A stretch of 64,000 nt of DNA from Candidatus Omnitrophota bacterium (lineage in GTDB: Bacteria > Omnitrophota > Gorgyraeia > Gygaellales > Profunditerraquicolaceae), in assembly GCA_041650295.1 (NCBI GenBank), contig JBAZLM010000003.1, positions 66,933 to 130,932 on the forward strand. Reading direction: 5' to 3'. Each line of letters opens with the position of its first letter. The stretch's first letter is position 1. Below, in pieces: positions 20,782 to 36,367 of this stretch. The notes beneath the pieces are model-generated. The model did not search any database. It saw only the letters and a program-made list of their open reading frames with translations, and was not told the origin of the DNA. The position numbers and the translations under genes were made by a program.

Positions 20782-20813
20782 GCTTAGGCAGGACCCGCGT
20801 AGACGAAATAAAA

Positions 20814-23212
20814 TTATATAACGATATTAACGAGTTTCTGGGGGACGATGATAATTTTCTTCGGGGACTTTCCTTCAAACCAAGGAATTAATTTTTCATC
20901 TTGCTGAATCAACTCTTTAAGCTTTTCTTCAGAGATATTACGCTCAACAGAAATTTTACTACGCACTTTTCCATTAACTTGAATTACTAACTCTACAGTT
21001 TCTTCCACCAATAATGCCGGATCAAATTTTGGCCAACTAGCTTTAAAAATACTTTCCTTATTACCCAAAATTTCCCAAAGCTCCTCGGCAAAATGCGGCA
21101 CAATCGGACTCAGCATAATTACAAGAGTTGAAAATATCTGCTTATTGGCACCAGTTTGATAAATAACATTGGTTAACTCCATGAGACTAGCAATCGCGGT
21201 ATTAAATTTAAATTCGCTGTAATCCTGGCTGACTTTTTTTATTGCTTTATGCAAACTCTTTAAAGCTTGCGGATCTACTTGATCCTTTAAATTTTCCTGA
21301 ATTCTCCAAACCCGGTTTAAAAATTTAAACGACCCCTCTAACCCACGCTCATCCCACTCAAGTTCAGTCTCCGGAGGAGCCGCAAATAAAATAAACAAAC
21401 GCAGGGCATCCGCGCCGTAATTTTTAATCATTGAATCCGGATCAACGATATTGCCCTTAGACTTAGACATTACCTCGCCATCTTTTAAAACCATACCTTG
21501 AGTAAGCAATTTATTAAACGGCTCGCTAAAATCAATCAACTTTAAATCTTGGAAAAATTTCGTAAAGAATCTCGAGTACAACAAGTGCAAAATCGCATGC
21601 TCAATTCCACCAATATATTGATCAACCGTCATCCAATATTTAGCTTCTTGAACATCAAACGGTGCCTCATTAAATTTAGGCGAGCAAAATCTTAAAAAAT
21701 ACAGGAAGAATCAAAAAAAGTAGCCATCGTGTCAGTTTCTCGACGAGCTTTGCCCTTACATTTAGGACAATTAACTTCCACAAATGCTTTAACTTTATTT
21801 AACGGACTTCCCCCTTCCCCAGTAAAGGGTGCATCAGCAGGTAATTCAACCGGTAAATCTTGATAAGGGACTGGCACAATTCCACAAGTCGGACAATAAA
21901 TCATCGGAATCGGTGTACCCCAATAGCGTTGACGAGAGATTAACCAATCACGTAAGCGCCAATGGGTTTGAATTTTACCAATTTTTTTAGCCTCCATCCA
22001 TTGCGCAATTTTATTTTTAGCTTCTTGATTATTTAATCCATCAAACTCACCAGAATTTATCTGTAGGCCATCACCTTCATAAGCTTGAGTTAAATCTTGT
22101 GCAGATTTTAAAGTTCCCTCTTTAGGCGAGATAACCAAACGCAGCGGTAATTTATGCTCTTTAGCAAAAAGAAAATCACGTTGATCATGTGTGGGTACGG
22201 CCATAATGGCTCCGGTGCCATACTCCATCAACACATAATCAGCAATCCAAATCGGAACCTTTTCGTTATTTACCGGATTAATTGCAAAACTACCGGTAAA
22301 TACCCCTTCTTTCTTAACATCAGAAGCCGCACGTACAACTTTACTTTCCGCCGCCACTTTTTTAATAAAAGCTAGCGCTGCCTTTTCCTCAGGTCTACCT
22401 TTAATTAAATCTTTAACTAATGGATGCTCCGGAGCTAAAACAATATAGGTAGCCCCAAAGATTGTATCCACACGCGTAGTAAATACGGAGATTACCGTAT
22501 CACTATTTTCTAATTTAAAATAAATATCCACCCCGCTGCTTTTGCCAATCCAATTATTTTGCATGGCTAAAACTCGCGGTGGCCAATTGACTAATTTTTC
22601 TAAATCTTCTAATAATCGTTCCTTATATTCAGTGATTTTTAAATACCACTGCTCTAAATCTTTTTGCTCAACCTTAGTATGACAGCGCCAACACTCTCCA
22701 TCGATTACCTCTTCATTGGCCAAAGTGGTCTGACAGCTAGTACACCAATTTACCCCCGAAGCTTTACGATAAGCCAGGCCGCGTTCAAACATCTTTAAAA
22801 AAATCCACTGGTTCCATTTATAATAATCACTCTGACAGGTGGAGACTTCCCTTTCCCAATCATAAGAAAAACCCATTTTCTTTAATTCGGTTTCCATCTC
22901 TTTAATACATTTATGCGTCCAATCAGCAGGCTTAGTTTTATTTTTTATCGCCGCATTCTCCGCCGGCTGGCCAAAAGCATCAAAACCCATCGGATGCATT
23001 ACATTGTAACCTTCTAAAGTTTTAAAACGGCTAGCTACATCGCCAATCGTATAATTGCGCACATGACCCATGTGAATTTTTCCCGACGGATACGGAAACA
23101 TCTCTAGCAGATAATATTTTTTGCGCGCTAGATCAGCTTGCGCCCGAAAAGCAGAACTATCCTGCCAAATTTTCTGCCACTTATTTTCTATTGTTTTAGG
23201 ATCATATTGCAT
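20814..23212 (-). pseudogene. leuS: Leucyl-tRNA synthetase disrupted by a 1-bp frameshift near 21700
   Basis: Two adjacent ORFs, 21692-23212 and 20814-21632, match the LeuS N- and C-terminal halves. Shifting +1 at tcctg^tatttt restores [39 protein letters not shown]. Confidence 0.85.
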
Positions 23213-24214: not shown

Positions 24215-25816
24215 ATGTTTAAATTCAAAAAACCAACCATATTAATTATCGATGACGATCCTGCCGTAAGAAGTTACCTTAACGACCTGTTAAAAAGCAA
24301 AGGTTTTCTTACCTACTTGGCTAGCGATGGCCAGGAAGCTTTAGAAAAAATAAAAAAATTAAAAATCCAGATTGTCCTCTGTGATATTAAAATGCCTAAA
24401 CTTAACGGCATTGACTTTCTTAAAGCTACTCATAAATTAAACTTAAATGTGCAGGTAACCATTATGACCGGAGTTTATGATTTAGAGAGCTGCAATGAAG
24501 CAGTAAAATACGCCATTTGCGGTTACTTGATTAAACCTTTCTCAAGCGAAGAACTAATGAAATCCATAACTCTAGCCCAACGCAATATTCTAGAGAAGCA
24601 CGAAACCACTAAACACGCCATGGGCCAGCTCAAAGAAGGAAAACATAAATACATCTTGAGCAATATTTTAAAAAAAATTTATTTGGCGATCCCTTTAACT
24701 TTATTACTTTGCGCAATTCTAGTTCCTTTAGTTAATTTTGTCCCCTTCTCAGGAAACTTAAGATGCGGCATTTACGACCAGCTGCAAAAGACAGAAAACA
24801 TCCTCAAAGGCCCACCTGAGCAAATTAACCAAATTGTTTTAGTGCTCATCGATAATCAAACTATCGAAAAAATTTCTCAAAGCTGGCCATATCCGCGTTC
24901 AGTATTTGCACAAGTAATCAAAAATATTAAGGCAGCTAACCCAAAGATAATTGCCCTAGACTTTACTTTTATCGGCAACTCTGATCCTAAAGAAGATGAC
25001 TATCTCAAAGAAGAACTTTCTGGCGGCCAGCCGATAATTTTAGGCTACGGGATTGATGAAGCTAGTAAGATTAATTTCTCTACCTTGCCCCAAATTACTT
25101 CAGTAACTTCCTCAGGATTTGTTAATTCATTACAAGATCATGACGGGGTAGCCCGTCGAGGATTAACTTATCTTAAAAGTGAAAACAATCCTAAGCTCTG
25201 GTTTCTTTCTTGGGAGATGCAAGTATTAAAAACAATCAAGGGAATCAACTACTCTACTTTTATAGACGACAAAACTACTATCTCCTTTAAAAACAGCGCT
25301 CAAGAAGAATGGGAGATTCCGGTTGATCCACAATCAAGTTCATTTCTCATCCGTTTTCGCGCTAAAACTGAAGACTTCAAACAACTTTCTTTTGTACAAG
25401 TTCTAAATCACAACTTTAACCCTCTAGATTTAAAAGATAAGATTGTCTTTTTAGGAATTAACTCTACTTTGTTAGGTGATTACCAAAATGTGCCGATTGG
25501 TAAAGTCCCTGGAATAATCTTAAAAGCTAACTCTTTTTTAACACTTTATGCACATAATTTTTTAAAAATTGCGCCAGTGGCATTACGCTTAGGATTTCTG
25601 ATTTTAGGAATATTTTTAATGGTCTTAGCTTTCTTTTTCCTTAAAAATTGGAGAAGGGCCGCAGTGGCGGGGTTACTGGTGTTTTTATTTTTCATTTTAA
25701 GCTATGTGTTTTTTAGCTTTGGTCTAATTTGGAACTACGCAGTTTTCCCTAGTGTATTGGTATTAACTTACTTACTCTTATCCGCTACACAAAATATCTG
25801 GAAGTTTCCGGCTTAA
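24215..25816 (+). CDS. Receiver domain fused to CHASE2 sensor domain membrane protein
   Basis: N-terminal receiver domain (ILIIDDD ... CDIKMP ... K), then a TM segment, then a CHASE2-like segment (VLVLIDNQTIEKISQSWPYPRSVFA ... ALDFTF), then C-terminal TM helices. No output domain is present. Confidence 0.6.
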   Translation: MFKFKKPTILIIDDDPAVRSYLNDLLKSKGFLTYLASDGQEALEKIKKLKIQIVLCDIKMPKLNGIDFLKATHKLNLNVQVTIMTGVYDLESCNEAVKYAICGYLIKPFSSEELMKSITLAQRNILEKHETTKHAMGQLKEGKHKYILSNILKKIYLAIPLTLLLCAILVPLVNFVPFSGNLRCGIYDQLQKTENILKGPPEQINQIVLVLIDNQTIEKISQSWPYPRSVFAQVIKNIKAANPKIIALDFTFIGNSDPKEDDYLKEELSGGQPIILGYGIDEASKINFSTLPQITSVTSSGFVNSLQDHDGVARRGLTYLKSENNPKLWFLSWEMQVLKTIKGINYSTFIDDKTTISFKNSAQEEWEIPVDPQSSSFLIRFRAKTEDFKQLSFVQVLNHNFNPLDLKDKIVFLGINSTLLGDYQNVPIGKVPGIILKANSFLTLYAHNFLKIAPVALRLGFLILGIFLMVLAFFFLKNWRRAAVAGLLVFLFFILSYVFFSFGLIWNYAVFPSVLVLTYLLLSATQNIWKFPA

Positions 25817-28800
25817 TTAAAGACTTCCTGATCGGTTGATTTTTTATCTTGTTGAAGATTAGGTTTAGCCAACGGCTTTTCTGCGCCTAAAGGAATCACT
25901 CCCATCCCACCCGGAGGAATAATCCCGCTACCATGAGGAAACATCAAACGATTGGTAATTTCAGGGCTTTGATTTGAGATAAAATTTTGCTTTGAATACG
26001 AAAGATTGGAAACATCCGCAATGACTGGCATTGTCACAGGCAAAATCGCCGGGTTCACAAAGACTGGAGTGACCCCCATAGGAATAATTAATGGTGCGCT
26101 AACCGGAATGGGCATGGCCATTGGCACAGCAGGGACTACCCCAGTAGAAATAAACACAGGAACAGAGATATTTAAAGGTGTTGGTAAATTACTAACATAT
26201 AAGACACTTTCGCCTTGCATAATGGTTAAAGATTGATTAATCGCCAATGATCCGGGTTGATAGGTGATGGCATAATTACTCAAACCTGTTCCCTCTGCAG
26301 CGCTAGCAACGATACTATAAGGTGATTGATTAACCCCGGCACTGGCGGCAGCACCAGAGCTAGTTAAAGTTACGCTAGAGATTAGATCACTATTAATTAA
26401 TCCGCTGGAAGTAAACTCTGTTCCCGTAAAATTTAAATTATCGCCAAAAGTTTTAGTAACATTATCGGCGGTAATGGTTAAAGGTTTAGTAGTAATGGTT
26501 AGATTAGCTCCAACAAAATTAATTGAATAGTTGCTACCTGCAGATAAAGTGCCTTGATTAATCGCATAAGGACCAGCAGTAACAGTTTCGCCAGCGGCAC
26601 GCGCTAATGCGCCAGTAAATGAAATCGCTTCACTAGGTGTATAAGTAAATATCGGATCCACTGCACCGTAAACTTTGGTTTGAGCATCTGCAATCACGGT
26701 TACCGATTTAGGAGCAATAGTAAAATTAGCCGAAACAAAAGTAATGTCATAATTAGTACCAGCAGTTAAAGTTCCTTGATTAATGGCGTAACTACCGACG
26801 TCAGTACCAGCAGCGCGGCTTAAAGCACCAGAATAAGTATCTAAACCAACTAAGGTATCCGCAGTATAAGTAAAGACTGGATCAGCCGCTCCATAAACTT
26901 TAGATTGTCCGGCATTAGCCGTAACAGTTACCGGCTTAGCACTGATGGTTAAGTTGGCCGGAACAAAAGTAATTGTATAATTGCTGCCCGCAGTTAAGGT
27001 TCCCTGACCAATAGCATAATCGCCAACATTCGTGCCAACAGCGCGAGTTAATGCGCCAGTGTAAACGTCCTCACCCACTAAAGCAGTAGCGGTATAAGTT
27101 AAAGTTGGATCGCTAGCACCATAGACTTTGGTTTGAGCGTTAGCGGTAACGGTCACGGGTTTAGTATTAACAGTTAAAGACCCATTCTCATAAACAATAT
27201 TATAGTTGCTTAATCCTGTTCCCACTGCATCGCTAGGAACAATGCTATAGCTATTTACATTTGCACCTGAAGCTGCACCGACGCTAGTTAAAGTAACACT
27301 GTTTAAAGTATCCGAACCGACTAATCCTACTGCTGTAAATTCAGTTCCGGCAAAAGTTAAGGTTGAGCCATAAATCTTACTAGCGCTATTAGCCGTAATC
27401 GTCAAAGTTGGCTTAATCGCGCTGGTAATTACATTAAAAACGCCTGTGCCGATTGTAAAATATACATCATTTTCATGCGTTGCTCCCGAGCCGGTAATTC
27501 CCCAGGTTCCGTTAACTTGACCAATTTCGCCTAAAGTAAGCATATCAATACTAATCTCTGCCCCATCAGCAATATTAACTTGCGCTCCTGAAGCAATCGA
27601 TAAATTACCAACCACTATTGTGTCGCTGTATATATTAAATACGCAATTACCGGTTAAAATTAAATTAGCATTATAAGTGGCTGGAAATACATCTTGCTCA
27701 GTAACACCAATATATTCAACATCGCCATTAAATGTGCCACCAATAATTACGCCATTGTTAACAATCTCCCCATTAAATATGCCGCCAAGAATATACATAT
27801 TATTAACAACCTCTGCATTAAATGTACCATCAAGAATTGCTCCGTTATTAATAATTGCGGCATTAAATGTACCACTGGCAAGCGGAGCAATGCTATTAAT
27901 TGTGCCATTATATGTTCCAGCGGCGATACCGTAATAATTATCAATATGGGCGCTAAAAGTACCCTCACCAATTAAAGCGAAATTTCCAAACTCTACCGTA
28001 TAATCCGGAACCGTTTCTTGCACCACCCCATTAACGCTCCAGTTACTTGGAACAGTCGGACTGGCAAACCAACCGGTAAATACCGGAACCAAATGTTTGT
28101 CCGATCCAACCGGCACCGGAGTTCCTAAAACAATTTGATAAAAGTTCCCTCCGGTAACCGTACCATTATTTGTCACTACACCACTAAATCCACCACCATT
28201 AATTGTACCGTTATTCAAAACCGTACCCGTAAATCCTCCATCATTAATCGTACCATTATTAATTACTGGTCTGGCAACATTAAAAATACCATTTTCCATC
28301 GAATATGAACCCAATGTTTCGATCCCCATCCATTCATTACCTGCGCCTATAGTTAATGTCTTCGTATTGCTAGGAACTAAACCCAGGCCACCGACCGACC
28401 CACTGACCCAAATAAAATCTCCTACATATGCACCATCGCTAACTTCTCCACCGTCATTAATAAATGTGCCCTGAAATATTAATACTATGCCCTCATCATC
28501 AGAAATGCTAACTGAGCCATAATTAGTGACTGTACCATTAAATGTTCCACCTAAAATGGAACCATTATTAGTCAATGTGCCAGCATTAGATGTTCCCTCA
28601 GATGGATAATTTATCTTACCTGCATCAGGAATAGTTAGTGTATCATCACTAACTGGCACTCCATTTCCACCGGAATAATTACCAACATTATTTAAATTAC
28701 CATCCTCTGCACCAGTCCAAGTATAATTATAAGGACCGAGTCCATCATTCTGCACGAAATCGCCATTAATAACTCCGGCCGAAATAATTCCACCAACCTG

Positions 28801-31800
28801 ATTAGTTACCGTTCCAGTAAAAGTGCCACCATTAATCGTGCCATAGTTATCCAGATCCGTAGCGGTGGATCCGCTCATAATCGTTCCGATATTGGCAGCT
28901 TCTCCGGTAGAAGGTAGTACCTCAATTGTGGCTCCGTTTATCGTCCAGTTAGCAGCCACATCTAAATCTCCGCCGTTAAATACCGGAACAGCAGATTTAT
29001 CTATTCCACCGCCAATATCCCCATCAACACTCTGGTAAAAATTTCCGCCGGCAATAGCGCCAGTATTAGTAACCACGCCAAAAAACACACCATCCTCAAT
29101 GTCAGCTATATTAATAACCGGACCGTCAAAAATTCCTCCGGAAATTGTACCAGCATTAATCAGCTGATCGCTGTCATAAGTTTCACCACCAAGTTCATAG
29201 CTACCACCCATAACCTGATTATTAAATGTACCGCCGGATATCATTCCCACATTAGCAATCAAACCATTAAATTCTCCTGAATAAATATAACCAGCATTAT
29301 AAATTAGACCGCTAATCTCTCCTCCATCAATAATATTATAGTTGAAAAAATATTCACCTGAATATGACCCACCAGTAATTATGCCGGAATTAGCAACTTC
29401 TGCCTCATCTATAGGTAATGCTGATAATGGCTCACCATTCACTGACCAATTAGCGGCGACATCTAAATCTCCACCATTAAACACCGGGACATCAGATTTA
29501 TTTGTTCCATCTCCAATGCCATATCCTCCAACAGTCCGATAAAAATTACCACCAGCGATACTACTATTATTAGTAACTACGCCAAAAAATTGACCATCCT
29601 GAATATAATAATTATTGATAACTGTATTATTGAATACGCCATATTGGATATAATAATCATTAGTAACTGCGGCATTAAATACACCGCCGGCTATAAGATA
29701 AGTATTAACCACTGCGGAATTAAATACACCGCCACCAATTGCGATATTATTGGTAACTACGCCATTAAATGTACCGCCAAAAATTAACCCAGTATTAGTC
29801 AGCGCTTGGGCAAATGTACCACCCCAAATGCCCATAAGATTTGTAACTACACCACTAAATGTTCCATCGCCGATCAAGCCAGAGTTGTTAATTATGCCAC
29901 CATATACGCCATTCATAATGGAGCCGTAATTATCAATGCGTACAGAAGTTTGGCCAGCAATAATTACACCGAAATTAGCAAATTCTATTTCCGGCAATAC
30001 CTCTGTTGTATACGAATGACCGTCCATAGTCCAGGACCAGGTATCTGGATTATTTAAATCTCCCTCTTCGGCTGTAAATACCGGAACAGCTGACTTATTA
30101 ATACCGCTCTGGATCCCATTTGCACCAATAACCGTTTGATAAAAATCACCGCCGGTAATTGTACCGTCATTAGTAACTACGCCTAAGAAACCACCACCAG
30201 TAATCGTACCGCTAGGATTATTCAATACCGTATTACTAAACCCACCGCCAGTAATCGTACCATTGTTAGTAACTGGAGCAGAGATTGCGAATTTATTGTT
30301 ACCTAATCCGCTCAAAGAAAATACAGCTCCATCCCAAGTAGCGCCTGAGGCAATAGTTAAAGAAGTAATACCTGCAATATCAATAATAAATTGCGATCCG
30401 CCTTCCCAAATAAAATCTCCAGTAAATGTGGCGCCATAAATATGTCCACTATGAGCAGTAAATTTACCTTTAAAAAATATACCTACCTCTAAATCGTCAG
30501 AAATATTACCATTATTAACAACTTCACCATTAAATATCCCACCGAAAATATTACCGTTATTAGTAGTTAACAAAGCATTGGATGTTCCTGATGATGGATA
30601 ATTTGCTTCATCCCCAAGCCAAGGAATAGTTAATGTATCAGTATTAGTTGGTACCACTTCAGCCACTAATCCACCGCAAGTATAATTGCCTGGTTTACCC
30701 AAATCCCCATCAATTGCCCCCGTCCAAACATAATCTAAATCCCAATTAGAGTTGTTAGTTCCTTTTAACGATAAAGTCATTGGCATAAGATAATTAGCCA
30801 CATTATTACCATCCTGAACGTATATATAGGTAAGATTTACTTTTGTCTGATCAAGAGCATTAACCATCCATTGGCTGCCAGCTTCTGTGGAAGATACACG
30901 GATTAAGTTGCCAGATGCTCCCTCTATTCTTAAGTTGTTCAGAATAGTCTGGGTTTTACCGGCTTCAAATTTGATGATTTTTCCAGGAGTGGTGCAAACT
31001 AAATTATAGAAGGTATTATTACCGCTGATAATGGAAACCTTGCTGGCATCAATAAAGCTTACGGTATAAGTAGCCGCATCAAAGGTTCCGGTCTGGTGAT
31101 TAAAATTACCTCTTAAAGCCAAATCCCGGGCTAAAGTTAAAGTACTGGTATAACCATTTATATTTAAATCATCAATCGTCCCCTGGAAAGCCGCATCCAC
31201 AATAGAATCTTTATTCGGGTTATTTCCAGTGACACCATCAAAGGTAACGATGTCATATTCGGTAGGAGTAGTTCCGGTATCCCAGTTATTTGCATCTGAC
31301 CAGTTATTGGTTGCGCCATTACCAGTCCAGAAAGGATCTAAATCGAGGTTGGTATTATTGCCCAAAGAGCTAGAATGAATGATCTTTAACGGAGGAGCAC
31401 GGATATTTAATAAGTTGCTGACTAAAGCATATTGAATATCGCTCTCTCCTTGTGCATTCAGTGACCATTGTTTTAAAGGATCAATAGAAGTTAAAGTTAA
31501 AAGATTACCGTAGCTTCCTTTTAAGTTTAAGTTATTTAAAATGGCTTGAGGATTTTCAGTGTCAAATCTAACGATTTTACCCGGTTCAGTAACGTTAAAA
31601 TTATAAAAGATATTGGCTCCTAAAACATTGGCATCTTGACTAGAAACTAAATTTACCGTAGAGGTACCAGCATTAAATAAGCCAGAATTGGCCCAATTTC
31701 GGCTAATACTATACTCAGTATTAGCCGCATTCAAAGTCACGCCCTTACCTATATATAAGGATCCGGCAGTTCTGACTTGAGAATTATCCTGTTGATTATA

Positions 31801-32979
31801 AATGGCCACCGCTCCGGCTTGATTCAAATTTAAATCACCAATGACATTAATATTGGCTAAAGTCGAAGCTCCTGAAGATTGAATAGTGATATCACCAGAA
31901 GTAGTCGTAGAGATAGTCGTACCCGCAGCCTGATTAAATGCACCAACGCCATCTAAATCATAATCAGCTAATAACGATAAATCACCGGAATCAGCCGCTA
32001 TATCCGCGCTTACCTTAATATCATTATTAGCGGCTAAAGTAGCCTCTCCGGTAATATTCAATTTAGCATTAACCTTAATGGATTCATCACTGGATATTAA
32101 AATTTTACCATTTGCTCCGGCATCCAGGGTGCCAGAGGCAACCACATCTGCTCCGGTAGCCACAATCCGAATGGCGTCCCCTACCTTAATTACTTGATTT
32201 GCCCGCACTACTCCGGTTTGATTAACCGCTTGCTTAAAGATATTTTTAGCAGTTTTAACCGTCATAAACACTTGAGCTGCAGCAATCGTACCAGAGTTAG
32301 CAACAGCTTCTTCTAAAGTAACTCCATTGCTATCACAAACCTGACCACTGGTAGCTTGATTAATCTCAACCTGGATTAAACCCATTTGGTCAAAACTAAC
32401 CGTAGCTTTATCCCCAGAAGCCAGGTGTGCAGTTCCCGCATATGCGGTAATTATACCTATATTATTTACGGCACTACCAATCAAAGCCACTGTATTAGTA
32501 GCTAAATTACCTTCATTCAAAATTTGAGAGTAAGGTGAATTGGCATTGTGTTCAAAGATATAATTACCATTAATAAAATTATTGGTAGTGATATTTAAGG
32601 TAGAAGCGATAAAACGATTTACTTGTACATTAGCATTTGGTCCAAAATGAATACCATTAGGATTAACCAAAACTAACATTCCGTTTGCATAAAGCGAACC
32701 AAAAATTTGGCTAGCCGCATTTCCAATGACTCTACTTAAAACGCTAGCATCATTTGATGGCTGAATAAAATTTACAATTTCATTTTGCGCAATGTTAAAA
32801 GAATTAAAATTAATTACGGTTTGATTGCTGGCAGTAATGTTTAAAGTATTGGCATTGATCTGTTCAAAAGTGGCAGAACCGGATTCCACAGTTTGACCTT
32901 GCGGCAAAGCAAAAAGCAATTGGCCGCAGCTCAAAGAAAAAATTAAAGTTAAGATTATAGTAAAAATTATTTTTTTCAT
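25813..32979 (-). CDS. Giant two-partner-secretion exoprotein (TpsA/filamentous-hemagglutinin-like adhesin), 2388 aa
   Basis: Signal peptide plus TPS secretion domain (VLSRVIG ... LVNPNGIHFG). A long 15-residue GG.FN..V.N...I. repeat lattice follows. VPVF..GDLDVAANW units occur four times. There are four MBG-type repeats (KPVTVTA..KVYG..DP..TYT) and a Pro/Val-rich C-terminus. Confidence 0.8.
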   Translation of the reverse strand: MKKIIFTIILTLIFSLSCGQLLFALPQGQTVESGSATFEQINANTLNITASNQTVINFNSFNIAQNEIVNFIQPSNDASVLSRVIGNAASQIFGSLYANGMLVLVNPNGIHFGPNANVQVNRFIASTLNITTNNFINGNYIFEHNANSPYSQILNEGNLATNTVALIGSAVNNIGIITAYAGTAHLASGDKATVSFDQMGLIQVEINQATSGQVCDSNGVTLEEAVANSGTIAAAQVFMTVKTAKNIFKQAVNQTGVVRANQVIKVGDAIRIVATGADVVASGTLDAGANGKILISSDESIKVNAKLNITGEATLAANNDIKVSADIAADSGDLSLLADYDLDGVGAFNQAAGTTISTTTSGDITIQSSGASTLANINVIGDLNLNQAGAVAIYNQQDNSQVRTAGSLYIGKGVTLNAANTEYSISRNWANSGLFNAGTSTVNLVSSQDANVLGANIFYNFNVTEPGKIVRFDTENPQAILNNLNLKGSYGNLLTLTSIDPLKQWSLNAQGESDIQYALVSNLLNIRAPPLKIIHSSSLGNNTNLDLDPFWTGNGATNNWSDANNWDTGTTPTEYDIVTFDGVTGNNPNKDSIVDAAFQGTIDDLNINGYTSTLTLARDLALRGNFNHQTGTFDAATYTVSFIDASKVSIISGNNTFYNLVCTTPGKIIKFEAGKTQTILNNLRIEGASGNLIRVSSTEAGSQWMVNALDQTKVNLTYIYVQDGNNVANYLMPMTLSLKGTNNSNWDLDYVWTGAIDGDLGKPGNYTCGGLVAEVVPTNTDTLTIPWLGDEANYPSSGTSNALLTTNNGNIFGGIFNGEVVNNGNISDDLEVGIFFKGKFTAHSGHIYGATFTGDFIWEGGSQFIIDIAGITSLTIASGATWDGAVFSLSGLGNNKFAISAPVTNNGTITGGGFSNTVLNNPSGTITGGGFLGVVTNDGTITGGDFYQTVIGANGIQSGINKSAVPVFTAEEGDLNNPDTWSWTMDGHSYTTEVLPEIEFANFGVIIAGQTSVRIDNYGSIMNGVYGGIINNSGLIGDGTFSGVVTNLMGIWGGTFAQALTNTGLIFGGTFNGVVTNNIAIGGGVFNSAVVNTYLIAGGVFNAAVTNDYYIQYGVFNNTVINNYYIQDGQFFGVVTNNSSIAGGNFYRTVGGYGIGDGTNKSDVPVFNGGDLDVAANWSVNGEPLSALPIDEAEVANSGIITGGSYSGEYFFNYNIIDGGEISGLIYNAGYIYSGEFNGLIANVGMISGGTFNNQVMGGSYELGGETYDSDQLINAGTISGGIFDGPVINIADIEDGVFFGVVTNTGAIAGGNFYQSVDGDIGGGIDKSAVPVFNGGDLDVAANWTINGATIEVLPSTGEAANIGTIMSGSTATDLDNYGTINGGTFTGTVTNQVGGIISAGVINGDFVQNDGLGPYNYTWTGAEDGNLNNVGNYSGGNGVPVSDDTLTIPDAGKINYPSEGTSNAGTLTNNGSILGGTFNGTVTNYGSVSISDDEGIVLIFQGTFINDGGEVSDGAYVGDFIWVSGSVGGLGLVPSNTKTLTIGAGNEWMGIETLGSYSMENGIFNVARPVINNGTINDGGFTGTVLNNGTINGGGFSGVVTNNGTVTGGNFYQIVLGTPVPVGSDKHLVPVFTGWFASPTVPSNWSVNGVVQETVPDYTVEFGNFALIGEGTFSAHIDNYYGIAAGTYNGTINSIAPLASGTFNAAIINNGAILDGTFNAEVVNNMYILGGIFNGEIVNNGVIIGGTFNGDVEYIGVTEQDVFPATYNANLILTGNCVFNIYSDTIVVGNLSIASGAQVNIADGAEISIDMLTLGEIGQVNGTWGITGSGATHENDVYFTIGTGVFNVITSAIKPTLTITANSASKIYGSTLTFAGTEFTAVGLVGSDTLNSVTLTSVGAASGANVNSYSIVPSDAVGTGLSNYNIVYENGSLTVNTKPVTVTANAQTKVYGASDPTLTYTATALVGEDVYTGALTRAVGTNVGDYAIGQGTLTAGSNYTITFVPANLTISAKPVTVTANAGQSKVYGAADPVFTYTADTLVGLDTYSGALSRAAGTDVGSYAINQGTLTAGTNYDITFVSANFTIAPKSVTVIADAQTKVYGAVDPIFTYTPSEAISFTGALARAAGETVTAGPYAINQGTLSAGSNYSINFVGANLTITTKPLTITADNVTKTFGDNLNFTGTEFTSSGLINSDLISSVTLTSSGAAASAGVNQSPYSIVASAAEGTGLSNYAITYQPGSLAINQSLTIMQGESVLYVSNLPTPLNISVPVFISTGVVPAVPMAMPIPVSAPLIIPMGVTPVFVNPAILPVTMPVIADVSNLSYSKQNFISNQSPEITNRLMFPHGSGIIPPGGMGVIPLGAEKPLAKPNLQQDKKSTDQEVFN

Positions 32980-33179
32980 TTTAGTATTGCTTCCTTTGGA
33001 AATGTGCCCACAAAGTTTGAACGAATTCCATATTTATCTTCCAAGAAAACTCGGCATAAATAATTCAAGATATCACTAACATCTTTATTAGATTCCATAG
33101 AAATAAACTTAATATGCTCTTCTATTTCTTTGGTGGTTCTAAATCCCAGGAATCCGTTTTGTTTTTTGATTTTGTTCAT
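32976..33179 (-). CDS. Small protein, paralog 1 (possible RHH-like DNA-binding)
   Basis: 67 aa starting at MNKIKKQNGFLGFRTTKEIEEHIKF, with a GGAGGA Shine-Dalgarno sequence. It is 60-70% identical to the 33379-33582 product. The beta-alpha-alpha pattern suggests ribbon-helix-helix. Confidence 0.45.
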   Translation of the reverse strand: MNKIKKQNGFLGFRTTKEIEEHIKFISMESNKDVSDILNYLCRVFLEDKYGIRSNFVGTFPKEAILK

Positions 33180-33378
33180 CTCTTTCCTCCGACAGCTAAA
33201 GTATAACATATGTTTAACAGTTGTCAAGGTTGACAGATAAAATATTTTTGTTAATACCATAATTATTTATTAATGTAAGTTGTTGAATACCAACGATTTA
33301 AAACATAGGTAGGTTTAAATTAGTTAAATCTTTTAAAAAATTTGAAAAAATTTTATCGAGGAGAAATAAACTACTCTC

Positions 33379-33582
33379 TTACTTCTTGGCTGCGGGCTTA
33401 GTTGGTTTACCAGTGAAATTCGAACGGATGGAGTATTCGTCTTTTAAAAATAAACGACAAAGATAATTTAAGGTGCCACTAATTTCTTTATCACATTCTG
33501 CAGATAGCGACTTCATACTAGTTTCAATTTGTTTGGTCGTACGAAATCCCAAGAAACCATCTTGCTTTTTGATCTTCTTCAT
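33379..33582 (-). CDS. Small protein, paralog 2 (possible RHH-like DNA-binding)
   Basis: 67 aa, MKKIKKQDGFLGFRTTKQIETSMKSLSAECDKEISGTLNYLCRLFL. Paralog of the upstream small ORF. Confidence 0.45.
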   Translation of the reverse strand: MKKIKKQDGFLGFRTTKQIETSMKSLSAECDKEISGTLNYLCRLFLKDEYSIRSNFTGKPTKPAAKK

Positions 33583-33594
33583 ATCTTTTTAACT

Positions 33595-35349
33595 TTATAT
33601 TTCAGCTTGAAAAGTTAAATAAAATGTAGATGGTCCTGATCCACTAACCGGTTGGTCTCCTCCAATGGCTTTAGCCCATTGCGCTTTTACAGAACAACCG
33701 GTAAAATTTAATTGCACACCCCCACCAACACCCGCTAAAAATTGATCCGGCATTTCTCCGGGAATTACTTTTCTTAATTTTCCACCACCGCAATCTACAA
33801 AAATTAAAGGTTGAATTTGATAACGCAAAGGAACTTTTTGATTATTTAATTTCCAATCTTTGGGAATTAAATACATGGGAAAAATCCACTCTGTAGCTAA
33901 GTAACCACCAATGTCTGCTAAATAGTCACCTTCCGGATAACCTCTTACGGAATAAGCACCACCAATCTGAATCTGTTCAGAAGCCGGTAAGGTACAAGAT
34001 GCAGCCTGAAACTGAGAACGCATGGAAAGATAGCTACCAAAAGGCATCCTTTGTGTACGATTTAAAGTTTGATCATATTTAAAAAATGATCCCCCCGAAC
34101 CAGTACGACTGGCCAAAGAATTACCGCGTGAAGAAGATCCTAAGAAACCACTGGAACTAAAAGAAAATTTAGGAGAAAAACTAGTTTGTCCGGTAGTATC
34201 CTGCTTAGTAAAATCAAAACCAAACCAGGGAAGGCGCAGTTGATCATCAGAGGTCTTCTCTCCAGCTGTTTTTTGCACAATAGACTTAATATCAATACCT
34301 AAATTAAAATCAGCCTGATAATCTTCTCTTAAAGCTAACTCCCAAGATAAGCGAGGTGTATAAATCTGAGTTTGACCGGTAATATCTTGTGGCCCATACT
34401 CTTTCCCTAGCCTCATCTTAAAATAAGTAGTATCAAAGTAAAATTTTGTTCCATTGGTCCCTATTGGCAGCCCATAACTAATCGACTGACCAAAAGTATC
34501 GCGACTTAATAATGATACAGAGAATAACGAATCTGCATTACCAGTTAAATTAGAGGTGCGTAAAGTAAAGGAAGTGCGGTACTGACCGGTGAGTCGAGTT
34601 CCCTGATTATCCTCTCCTATGCCAATATGCCAGGGAAGCTTGTCTTTTACTTGCAAAACAATATCTGAGGATTGCGGATCTTGACCAGCAGAGATAACCG
34701 TTTTAACCTCTAAATCTGAACTTTGATTTAAACGTAAAACATCTCTTTGTAATTCATTAATGTTTAGAATTTGGTTTTTTTTTGAGTGGAAGAATCTTTC
34801 AATTAAATCGGAAGAAAACCATTTATTACCCTCAATTTTCAAATTTCCCATCTTGCCTTCGGCTACTCTAATCTCTACCTGGCCATCTTTAATATCCTGA
34901 GGAGGAATATAGGCACTAGTAGTAAGATAACCTTTTTTAGCATAAACAGATTCCATCGCTTTCATTACTGTTTCCAAATCTTGAAAGGTTATCTCTTTAT
35001 TAAGGTAAGGCTGATAAATTGAACTAAACTCTTCCGGTTTAAAAATAGTAGACCCGGTAATCACAATTTTCTTTAAGAAAAATGGTACGCTCGGTAAAGC
35101 GGTAATTCCCGGCCGAGTAGGAACTTCAATCACCGGAGTTTTAGCTTTTTGCTGCAGTTGAGTTTTTTGACGTTCGGCTTGCGCTTTAAAACGCTCTGCT
35201 TCAGCTCCCACGCTTTGCCCGGTTGGTGGCGCAGCAAAAGCAAAAGAAGAGATAAAAATAAAGGTTAAATTAAATAATATTGTTTTAAGCAGAAAACCCG
35301 GAAGATTTTTTGATTTACGTTTATACATAATTTTATTAGGTAATGGCAC
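33595..35349 (-). CDS. ShlB/FhaC/HecB family two-partner-secretion transporter (TpsB)
   Basis: 584 aa. Signal peptide, POTRA region and a beta-barrel with the conserved motif GGAYSVRGYPEGD. Confidence 0.8.
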   Translation of the reverse strand: MPLPNKIMYKRKSKNLPGFLLKTILFNLTFIFISSFAFAAPPTGQSVGAEAERFKAQAERQKTQLQQKAKTPVIEVPTRPGITALPSVPFFLKKIVITGSTIFKPEEFSSIYQPYLNKEITFQDLETVMKAMESVYAKKGYLTTSAYIPPQDIKDGQVEIRVAEGKMGNLKIEGNKWFSSDLIERFFHSKKNQILNINELQRDVLRLNQSSDLEVKTVISAGQDPQSSDIVLQVKDKLPWHIGIGEDNQGTRLTGQYRTSFTLRTSNLTGNADSLFSVSLLSRDTFGQSISYGLPIGTNGTKFYFDTTYFKMRLGKEYGPQDITGQTQIYTPRLSWELALREDYQADFNLGIDIKSIVQKTAGEKTSDDQLRLPWFGFDFTKQDTTGQTSFSPKFSFSSSGFLGSSSRGNSLASRTGSGGSFFKYDQTLNRTQRMPFGSYLSMRSQFQAASCTLPASEQIQIGGAYSVRGYPEGDYLADIGGYLATEWIFPMYLIPKDWKLNNQKVPLRYQIQPLIFVDCGGGKLRKVIPGEMPDQFLAGVGGGVQLNFTGCSVKAQWAKAIGGDQPVSGSGPSTFYLTFQAEI

Positions 35350-35428
35350 TACGCTCGCTACGGCACTTGTCGTGCCGTTTTACGCTCGTTTTAGTGCCAT
35401 TTAATTTTTGCTTGTCGCAAAAATTAAA

Positions 35429-35501
35429 TGGAGCTGAGGAGGATCGAACTCCTGACCCTTTGCATGCCATGCAAATGCTCTCCCAGCTGAGCTACAGCCC
35501 C
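35429..35501 (-). tRNA. tRNA-Ala (GGC)
   Basis: Cloverleaf GGGGCTG / GCTCAGCTGGGAGAGC / anticodon loop ATGGCAT / GGGTCAGGAGTTCGATCCTCCT / CAGCTCC-A. The G3:U70 Ala identity pair is present. Confidence 0.8.
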
Positions 35502-35554
35502 AAAATTTATCTATTGACCTTTGCTATTTTAGAATATAAAATGCTTAACGTCAA

Positions 35555-35599
35555 CCCCGTTAGAAATACAAAATTATAATAGCATAATTTCTAACGGGG
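35555..35599. repeat. Hairpin repeat copy 3 (ccccgttagaaat ... atttctaacgggg)
   Basis: 13-bp perfect inverted repeat with a 19-nt loop, lying between the divergent tRNA-Ala and tRNA-Leu. Confidence 0.8.
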
Positions 35600-35616
35600 T
35601 CAACTTAAAAATCTAT

Positions 35617-35699
35617 GCCGGGATGGCGAAATGGCATACGCGGCAGCCTCAAAAGCTGCTGAGCGCAAGTTCATGTGGGTTCAACTCCCTCTCCCGGTA
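35617..35699 (+). tRNA. tRNA-Leu (CAA), type II with long variable arm
   Basis: Acceptor stem GCCGGGA/TCCCGGT. D-arm GCGAAATGGCATACGC. Anticodon stem-loop GCAGC-CTCAAAA-GCTGC. T-loop GGTTCAACTCC. One apparent mismatch remains in my T-stem parse. Confidence 0.55.
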
Positions 35700-35707
35700 T
35701 TTTTTTA

Positions 35708-36367
35708 ATGAAACAAAATATTAATCACAACTGGAATTCAAATTTAGCTTACGCTATCGGCCTTATAGCGACTGATGGAAATTTATCAAAAGACAAAAGG
35801 CATATCCTCTTTACGACAACTGACCTGCAATTAGCAAATACATTCAAAAAGTGTCTAAACATTAAAAATAAAATAATAATCACTTCTCCAAGCGGTTTCG
35901 GAAAGAAACGCGCTTATAGAATAAATTTTGGAAATGTAAAATTATATCAATGGTTGCAAACAATAGGGCTGATGCCTAAAAAAACAATGTTAATGGGTAA
36001 ATTAGATATTCCAGATAAATATTTCGTTGATTTCTTAAGGGGTCACCTTGATGGTGACGGCTCTATTTTTACTTATACCGATAAATACATGAAATACAAA
36101 GAAAAAAAGTATACTTATTTCAGATTATACACTAAGTTTATCTCAGCTAGTTTTATCCAAATTAGCTGGATTAGAGAAAAAATTAAAGAAATATTAAATA
36201 TACAAGGATCATTAACTCACTATCTTAAAATAAATAGAAAATTTCCTATTTGGCAACTTCGTTTTGCTAAAAATGATTCTTTAAAACTTCTATCCTGGCT
36301 CTACTACAAACCCAATCTGCCTTGTTTAAATCGTAAAAGAAAAATTGCACTACGTTTTATTAAGTAA
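35708..36367 (+). CDS. Free-standing double-motif LAGLIDADG homing endonuclease
   Basis: Two LAGLIDADG motifs are present (LAYAIGLIATDGNL and FLRGHLDGDGSI). It is 219 aa long and starts 9 nt after tRNA-Leu. Confidence 0.8.
   Translation: MKQNINHNWNSNLAYAIGLIATDGNLSKDKRHILFTTTDLQLANTFKKCLNIKNKIIITSPSGFGKKRAYRINFGNVKLYQWLQTIGLMPKKTMLMGKLDIPDKYFVDFLRGHLDGDGSIFTYTDKYMKYKEKKYTYFRLYTKFISASFIQISWIREKIKEILNIQGSLTHYLKINRKFPIWQLRFAKNDSLKLLSWLYYKPNLPCLNRKRKIALRFIK

Follow-up and report, generated by a model that had tools for sequence, protein, structure and literature searches.

What does a two-partner secretion (TPS) locus in an Omnitrophota genome place on the cell surface? Omnitrophota are uncultivated, very small bacteria that are probably host-dependent or predatory, and surface fibers are therefore obvious candidates for attachment to partner cells. 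We analyzed a 64,000-nucleotide (nt) stretch of contig JBAZLM010000003.1 of a Candidatus Omnitrophota bacterium (the window, to which all positions given without a locus name refer), which carries tpsB and tpsA, the latter encoding a 2388-amino-acid (aa) exoprotein. Our answer, to which we assign a probability of about 0.72, is that this is a type Vb secretion locus whose TpsA is a surface-exposed binding fiber, that is, an adhesin, and not a toxin carrier. TpsA is a mosaic of a TPS domain with a shaft, a cassette of 15-residue repeats found in no other sampled relative, five MBG domains, a Pro/Val-rich spacer, and a C-terminal motif.

Its sequence identifies the locus as a true type Vb, or two-partner, secretion system, and we regard this assignment as solid. 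TpsB matched the Pfam families ShlB (PF03865; 84 bits, cutoff 22.7) and POTRA_2 (PF08479; 80.6 bits), as well as POTRA (36 bits). It contains GGAYSVRGYPEGD, the VRGY of the loop L6 motif VRGY/F at aa 468, and FVDCG, corresponding to the barrel motif F/GxDxG, at aa 517. The true start of TpsB is likely the Met at codon 8, ahead of a signal peptide. TpsA matched TIGR01901 (68.5 bits, cutoff 29.1) and, when aa 1 to 300 were scanned alone, the Pfam TPS family PF05860 (87.1 bits, cutoff 33.5), which the whole-protein Pfam scan had missed. VRGY/F, F/GxDxG, and NPNG are described as defining motifs of TPS systems (PMC5422565). With domain matches above curated cutoffs in both proteins and all hallmark motifs present, the type Vb assignment is supported, as an earlier sequence-only reading had proposed from the POTRA region and barrel motif of TpsB and the NPNG-containing TPS domain of TpsA. 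The two genes lie on the same strand with tpsB 616 nt upstream of tpsA, and the tpsB-then-tpsA order occurred in all 11 Omnitrophota loci examined. TpsB is 47 to 55% identical to the TpsBs of eight other Omnitrophota TPS loci.

By analogy with FhaC and FhaB of Bordetella, TpsB, an Omp85-family barrel with POTRA domains, would recognize, in the periplasm, the TPS domain at the TpsA N terminus and would thread the ∼250-kDa protein across the outer membrane. Once outside, TpsA would fold into a long beta-helical fiber. The Bordetella system shares with this locus a transporter of the Omp85 type that has POTRA domains and the VRGY and F/GxDxG motifs, as well as a beta-helical exoprotein of great length that has NPNG in its TPS domain. 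The Pro-rich region of TpsA followed by a conserved extreme C terminus also resembles what we take to be the layout of the FhaB prodomain. The systems differ in that a motif search of TpsA found NPNG and no NPNL, that no FHA-type repeats were detected, and that the passenger consists of 15-residue units and MBG domains. Moreover, the C-terminal motif of TpsA is unrelated in sequence to that of FhaB, and the CHASE2 protein and small open reading frames (ORFs) that accompany tpsA are not in the Bordetella locus.

The N-terminal part and shaft of TpsA (aa 1 to 770) are 49 to 60% identical to those of dozens of Omnitrophota TpsAs, and the shaft matched 42 proteins in phmmer searches with E values down to 1e-173. 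Two stretches of the shaft, aa 432 to 515 and aa 630 to 714 (window 30838-31686, minus strand), form an internal duplication (38% identity, E of 6e-18), with an FYN..(T/E)PGKI..F motif at its center. The other Omnitrophota TpsAs (P0003 to P0066, annotated as [quoted passage not shown]) share aa 1 to 770 and the tpsB-tpsA order, and a subset also share the C-terminal motif, a convergent CHASE2 gene, and a small ORF. In contrast, their passengers bear PATR, RCC1, SBBP, FG-GAP, DUF2341, or MBG/YDG modules, and aa 780 to 1850 of TpsA had no match in any of the other 119 top-ranking TpsA homologues. In this picture, type Vb secretion in Omnitrophota is of the ordinary kind, and its passenger cassettes are exchangeable. 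A literature search found no description of TPS in Omnitrophota, and two papers on Omnitrophota giant genes do not mention it.

The cassette is made of units of the form GGxFxGxVxNxGxI, in which G2, F4, V8, N10, and I14 are conserved and which are arranged in tandem runs. A position matrix found 20 strong copies, or 25 at a looser threshold, all of them within aa 745 to 1850, compared with 0.1 to 0.8 units in composition-preserving shuffles of the same residues; the matrix was derived from the units themselves, and these counts are therefore somewhat circular. The longest unbroken run has nine units (aa 1008 to 1142). A 45-nt spacing in the DNA mirrors the 15-residue units, with copies 60 to 85% identical, and the cassette as a whole is 10.9% Asn and 9.4% Thr. 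Its super-repeat is ∼665 aa long (aa 749 to 1020 are ∼50% identical to aa 1418 to 1682), and besides the runs and connectors there are two less regular segments, which we call heads. The connectors begin with VPVF at aa 965, 1164, 1331, and 1631; connectors 2 and 3 are close to each other (80 to 85% DNA identity), and connectors 1 and 4 have diverged. Both the long periodic runs of 15-residue units and the four larger VPVF...NW.VNG units that the sequence-only reading had described were thus recovered.

That reading had also called the repeat unfamiliar. No Pfam family matched aa 780 to 1850 at an E value of ≤10, no NCBIfam family matched the repeat region at ≤0.01 in a scan of whole TpsA, and neither collection has a family that covers the repeat in P0121 and P0126, the most repeat-rich of the other proteins that carry it. 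Neither the cassette sequence nor a profile of the repeat matched any PDB sequence. With no curated family matching over the repeat, pentapeptide, hexapeptide, GLUG, and PATR repeats included, it was not placed in a well-characterized family such as the FhaB beta-helix, the outcome set beforehand as speaking against its novelty. The description as unfamiliar holds across Pfam, NCBIfam, PDB sequences, and Foldseek, but the repeat is not unique to TpsA: about 200 representative clusters carry it. From these searches the 15-residue unit appears to be an uncurated, structurally unsolved repeat, and our literature search found nothing on a 15-residue repeat with a beta-solenoid. The same results bear on whether the unit is instead a diverged form of a known beta-helix repeat, such as FhaB-type Fil_haemagg_2, GLUG, PATR, the hexapeptide of left-handed beta-helix (LbH) proteins, or bactofilin. 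Related TpsAs do bear PATR or GLUG, one repeat carrier has a weak Bactofilin match that falls below the cutoff (E of 0.0077), and LbH enzymes recur among nonsignificant structural matches. Against these stand the negative family and PDB searches and a turn of 15 residues versus 18 in LbH proteins and 19 in FHA, and we consider a diverged known repeat quite improbable.

We predict from AlphaFold2 models that the 15-residue unit is one turn of a very thin, three-sided beta-solenoid. The predicted local distance difference test score (pLDDT) was 90 to 96 over aa 1014 to 1144, and in the regular runs DSSP assigned three short strands to every 15 residues of the model, which indicates a three-sided solenoid. 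Modeling of the repeat blocks therefore supports the earlier suggestion that the runs are compatible with a beta-helix or beta-solenoid and predicts one turn per 15 residues. If this is true, the fold would be among the thinnest solenoids known. Foldseek searches with a long and a short model against PDB, and with the short model against BFVD, returned no match below an E value of 1e-3. All matches had E values of >0.1 and TM scores of <0.3; these nonsignificant neighbors were all beta-solenoids and included several ice-binding proteins and recurring LbH enzymes. Hexapeptide LbH enzymes are alike in having three short strands per turn and differ in having 18 aa per turn. The spruce budworm antifreeze protein is a triangular beta-helix with 15 aa per turn. 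Neither has a sequence relationship or a significant structural match to the TpsA repeat, which lacks the Cys ladder and the TxT motif.

These comparisons raise a refinement of the adhesin reading, namely that the solenoid itself is the functional surface, with a flat, Thr/Asn-lined face that would bind a periodic ligand such as a polysaccharide, a mineral, or ice. The conserved T and N of the unit (GGTFNGxVTN), the high Asn and Thr content of the cassette, the ice-binding proteins among its structural neighbors, and a turn length equal to that of the spruce budworm protein are consistent with such a face. The E values and TM scores of every Foldseek match argue against it, as does, for ice, the origin of most repeat carriers in warm animal guts, and we consider this refinement unlikely. 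The 15-residue unit would repay structure determination and merits a Pfam entry of its own.

We determined where else the repeat occurs by an exhaustive HMMER search with TpsA aa 780 to 1850 against 1.84 billion representative proteins, which found 199 proteins at E values of ≤1e-3 and 49 at ≤1e-10. A word-indexed search found 535 proteins with the repeat, almost all of them unnamed ENA metagenome proteins of 1300 to 1600 aa. Signal peptides in the Gram-positive style occur in the carriers together with PEPEPE linkers and anchors at the C terminus, and individual carriers bear dockerin, Flg_new, InlB B-repeats, or choline-binding repeats. A scan for the codon pattern of GGTFNGxVTN in one genome per GTDB species found 33 loci, nearly all in gut Clostridia (Oscillospiraceae, Ruminococcaceae, Acutalibacteraceae, and others), with single Bacteroidaceae, Victivallales, and Selenomonadales genomes outside that class and none of the 33 in Omnitrophota. 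The gut Clostridia surface proteins P0122, P0121, P0123, and P0140 share with TpsA the unit xGTFxGxVxNxGxIx in runs of up to 10. They differ from it in their Gram-positive style signal peptides, in their anchors (choline-binding repeats, dockerin, or a C-terminal transmembrane segment), and in having no TPS N terminus. A TPS N terminus or the C-terminal tail motif was found in none of 272 repeat carriers; together with the absence of the repeat from the 119 TpsA homologues, this makes TpsA the sole observed fusion of TPS and repeat.

P0140 carries 15-residue runs, two MBG_2 domains, and choline-binding repeats, and it is collinear with TpsA over aa ∼870 to 2100 (E of 5e-31), including the MBG domains downstream of the solenoid. 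This collinearity suggests that solenoid plus MBG behaves as one transferable cassette. A relative was also found in a phage, where a 635-aa ORF (L045:4720-6627, minus strand; IMG/VR UViG_3300032173_000014) ends in a "Y.W.G...NY...P" head and, after it, a run of five or six 15-residue units, with 56% identity to a TpsA run over 82 aa (E of 7e-16). The phage protein matches PHROG 2155, "virion structural protein," and is thus like TpsA in its head and 15-residue run and unlike it in being a virion protein that is not TPS secreted. The N terminus of P0126 looks tail fiber-like by eye and has no PHROG match, and a viral scan with TpsA aa 1001 to 1200 gave no confirmed relative. Gut Clostridia surface proteins thus employ the same passenger cassette as an Omnitrophota TpsA, and a phage virion protein has the portion made up of head and solenoid. 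The 15-residue unit may represent a new and minimal beta-solenoid class with three sides, common to phage, Clostridia, and Omnitrophota.

Downstream of the cassette, MBG-type repeats are present as the sequence-only reading had stated, with the correction that Pfam gives five MBG_2 stretches and not four. By self-similarity, the outer two belong to one subtype and the inner three to another. The Pro/Val-rich tail noted in that reading corresponds to the spacer that follows. Within the last ∼35 residues of TpsA lies a motif with the consensus LMFPGGxxIIPTYGxGxPLGAEKPLLEPxI, which is common to at least 10 other Omnitrophota TpsAs (P0003, P0004, P0008, P0019, P0038, P0050, P0053, P0056, P0061, and P0066) and is also present in a 74-aa secreted ORF between tpsB and tpsA at another locus (L002:4616-4840). 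A search of a 5.8-billion-protein set returned 10 matches to the motif, mostly C-terminal TpsA fragments. The motif has no Pfam match, and no Pfam family was found in the last 139 aa (aa 2250 to 2388) at an E value of ≤10. The C-terminal motif is newly described here and, as its distribution indicates, marks a subfamily of Omnitrophota TpsAs.

Several lines of evidence favor a binding function. The solenoid-plus-MBG architecture occurs in Gram-positive wall-anchored proteins and the head-plus-solenoid architecture occurs in a phage virion protein, which makes a surface-exposed binding fiber the most likely role, and the MBG domains and TPS context point in the same direction. The alternative is that TpsA is a CdiA-like protein of contact-dependent inhibition, delivering a C-terminal toxin to neighboring cells while an immunity protein protects the producer. 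TpsA shares type Vb secretion and a large, modular exoprotein with CdiA/CdiB systems, TPS systems often deliver toxins (PMC5422565), and Omnitrophota are believed to be predators of other cells or to live on them (bioRxiv 10.1101/2023.11.21.568195). However, the locus differs from CdiA/CdiB in having no VENN, toxin domain, or immunity gene. No ELYN or similar pretoxin motif was found in TpsA either, and the last 139 aa contain the family-less region described above. At its C terminus TpsA has a short motif that many TpsAs conserve, quite unlike a toxin tip, which would be polymorphic, and no co-oriented small gene follows tpsA, where the next gene is the convergent receiver-CHASE2 gene that overlaps the tpsA stop codon. 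The lack of a toxin domain, VENN motif, and immunity gene favors an adhesin-like fiber over contact-dependent inhibition, which we consider very improbable. The sequence-only reading had allowed for either a surface adhesin or a contact-dependent effector scaffold; by analogy of architecture the adhesin is the part we would keep, and the effector scaffold is not.

Some observations weigh against the adhesin reading. About 37% of the cassette model has a pLDDT of <50, in the heads and some of the connectors, and connector 4 scored 81 to 89 in the long AlphaFold2 model versus <50 in the short one. The adhesin function is inferred from architecture. In addition, the TpsA sequence comes from a single short-read metagenome contig. 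The last point also raises the explanation that the repeat region is a collapsed, expanded, or chimeric assembly artifact or that tpsA is a pseudogene. A protein identical to the 2388-aa TpsA is deposited in NCBI, JGI, and ENA ([quoted passage not shown] MFA5092778.1; 232,926-bp contig), and a comparison of the window with the ENA record over 19.2 kb around the locus found one difference, a missing C at window position 21703, which shows that sequence errors do occur. That position is outside the tpsBA locus, over the whole of which the window and the ENA record are the same. Moreover, the 7167-nt ORF is unbroken, P0140, an independent protein, has a collinear architecture, and at 60 to 85% identity the 45-nt units include no near-identical copies long enough to mislead an assembler, so collapse or expansion is unlikely. 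We consider an artifact or pseudogene the least probable of the explanations weighed here.

Table 1. Features of the TPS locus and of related loci. Positions are in the window unless a locus is named.
Feature	Position (nt)	Strand	TpsA residues (aa)	Remarks
tpsB	33595-35349	minus		584 aa as ORF from GTG; Omp85-family outer-membrane transporter
Small ORF a	33379-33582	minus		67 aa; lacks signal peptide; paralogous to small ORF b; annotated gene in ENA record
Sigma-70-like promoter match	33200-33227	minus		TTGACA-16-TATACT with TG; 11/12 positions; consensus match
Small ORF b	32976-33179	minus		67 aa; stop overlaps tpsA start (ATGA)
tpsA	25813-32979	minus		2388-aa exoprotein; uninterrupted 7167-nt ORF
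Putative TpsA signal peptide	32908-32979	minus	1-24	MKK, hydrophobic core, LFA|LPQG; read by eye from sequence
TPS secretion domain	32191-32907	minus	25-263	PF05860, TIGR01901; NPNG at aa 106
Conserved shaft	30748-32190	minus	264-744	Common to other Omnitrophota TpsAs
15-residue-repeat cassette	27430-30747	minus	745-1850	Two super-repeats, 20-25 units in ∼8 runs, four connectors
Connector 1	29980-30099	minus		NKSAVPVFTAEEGDLNNPDTWSWTMDG...LP
Longest regular run	29509-29958	minus	1008-1157	Predicted three-sided beta-solenoid, one turn per 15 aa
Connector 2	29395-29502	minus		NKSDVPVFNGGDLDVAANWSVNG...LP; DNA repeat families D8, D11
Connector 3	28894-29001	minus		DKSAVPVFNGGDLDVAANWTING...LP
Connector 4	27994-28101	minus		DKHLVPVFTGWFASPTVPSNWSVNG...VP
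Five MBG_2 (YGX-type) domains	26230-27411	minus	1857-2250	PF18676, 230.7 bits, 5 stretches
Pro/Val-rich spacer	26011-26187	minus	2265-2323	22% Pro, 20% Val
Conserved C-terminal motif	25855-25953	minus	2343-2375	33 residues; NRLMFPHGSGIIPPGGMGVIPLGAEKPLAKPNL
Receiver-CHASE2 membrane protein gene	24215-25816	plus		533 aa; convergent with tpsA, 4-nt overlap with tpsA stop
CHASE2 orthologues	L002:16975-18168; L041:11144-12394; L042:8852-10222; L043:10758-11954			Convergent to tpsA
Lipoprotein ORFs	L041:10668-11117; L042:8406-8819; L043:10352-10768	minus		

The genes around tpsA recur in other Omnitrophota. The protein encoded by the convergent gene matched CHASE2 (PF05226, 140.6 bits) and Response_reg (89.7 bits), with the CHASE2 domain between hydrophobic segments at aa ∼147 to 182 and 448 to 522. 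A CHASE2 gene stands convergent to tpsA at the matching position in 5 of 11 Omnitrophota TPS loci (the window, L002, L041, L042, and L043), and the orthologues are 39 to 42% identical (E of 1e-90 to 1e-99). A receiver domain is present at the N terminus only in the window copy; the other four have CHASE2 alone, and a cytoplasmic output domain (kinase, cyclase, or GGDEF), usual in CHASE2 proteins, is missing from all five. The TpsAs of all five loci end in the C-terminal motif. Between tpsA and the CHASE2 gene, L041, L042, and L043 also have a gene for a conserved lipoprotein of ∼140 aa; the window, in which tpsA overlaps the CHASE2 gene, lacks it.

The small ORFs between tpsB and tpsA are 61% identical to each other, and homologues occupy the same interval at L041:3790-4014 and L044:2827-3081. 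These proteins of 67 to 84 aa have no signal peptide and share an invariant GFL.xRT.K.IE...NYL.R.F..D pattern, and the gene is duplicated in the window. Pfam, NCBIfam, and PDB profile searches found nothing significant, the best match being a segment of ribosomal protein bS18 (E of 0.083). From the strand-helix-helix pattern alone, we would guess that they are DNA-binding regulators of the ribbon-helix-helix type. The promoter-like site in Table 1, just upstream of small ORF b and tpsA, is the top-scoring sigma-70-like site in positions 25500 to 35800, a region in which the total number of such sites does not exceed that in shuffles.

The convergent CHASE2 protein and the small ORFs are conserved with this TPS subfamily and are probably its accessory or regulatory parts. 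We further propose, as a tentative and rather doubtful model, a five-part TPS machine of TpsB, a small cytoplasmic protein, a motif-ended TpsA, the lipoprotein, and a CHASE2 inner-membrane protein. The periplasmic CHASE2 domain would bind or sense the C terminus of TpsA and so tether the fiber or report its state of secretion or engagement, in the window by way of the fused receiver. If true, the machine would couple type Vb secretion to CHASE2 signaling, which is previously undescribed; our literature search found no paper that joins CHASE2 with two-partner secretion. The recurrent CHASE2 neighbor and the conserved C-terminal motif are a testable lead on how the fiber is anchored or regulated.

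Other features of the window and of related loci were noted in passing. On the minus strand lie 43 of the 45 ORFs of ≥150 aa in window positions 1 to 64000, and GC skew is negative in every 2-kb step (cumulative, -5.8), a pattern that suggests a single replichore in which genes are strongly co-oriented. Leucyl-tRNA synthetase appears in the window as two ORFs of 506 and 272 aa (20813-23212, minus strand), and it is intact at 799 aa in the ENA record (ERZ27247363:k141_96025). We rejected a naturally split enzyme: the cause is the 1-nt deletion at 21703, and as the sole difference in 19.2 kb it is an issue of sequence version or error. Divergent from tpsB, a free-standing 230-aa ORF (35675-36367, plus strand) has a LAGLIDADG_3 homing-endonuclease-like domain (30 bits), and an intein with LAGLIDADG_3 is present in an SMC gene neighboring the TPS locus L041. 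AbiEi/AbiEii-type toxin-antitoxin or abortive-infection genes lie directly downstream of tpsA at L037:12128-13589 and L038:11287-12943, and those of L038 stand between two tpsA genes.

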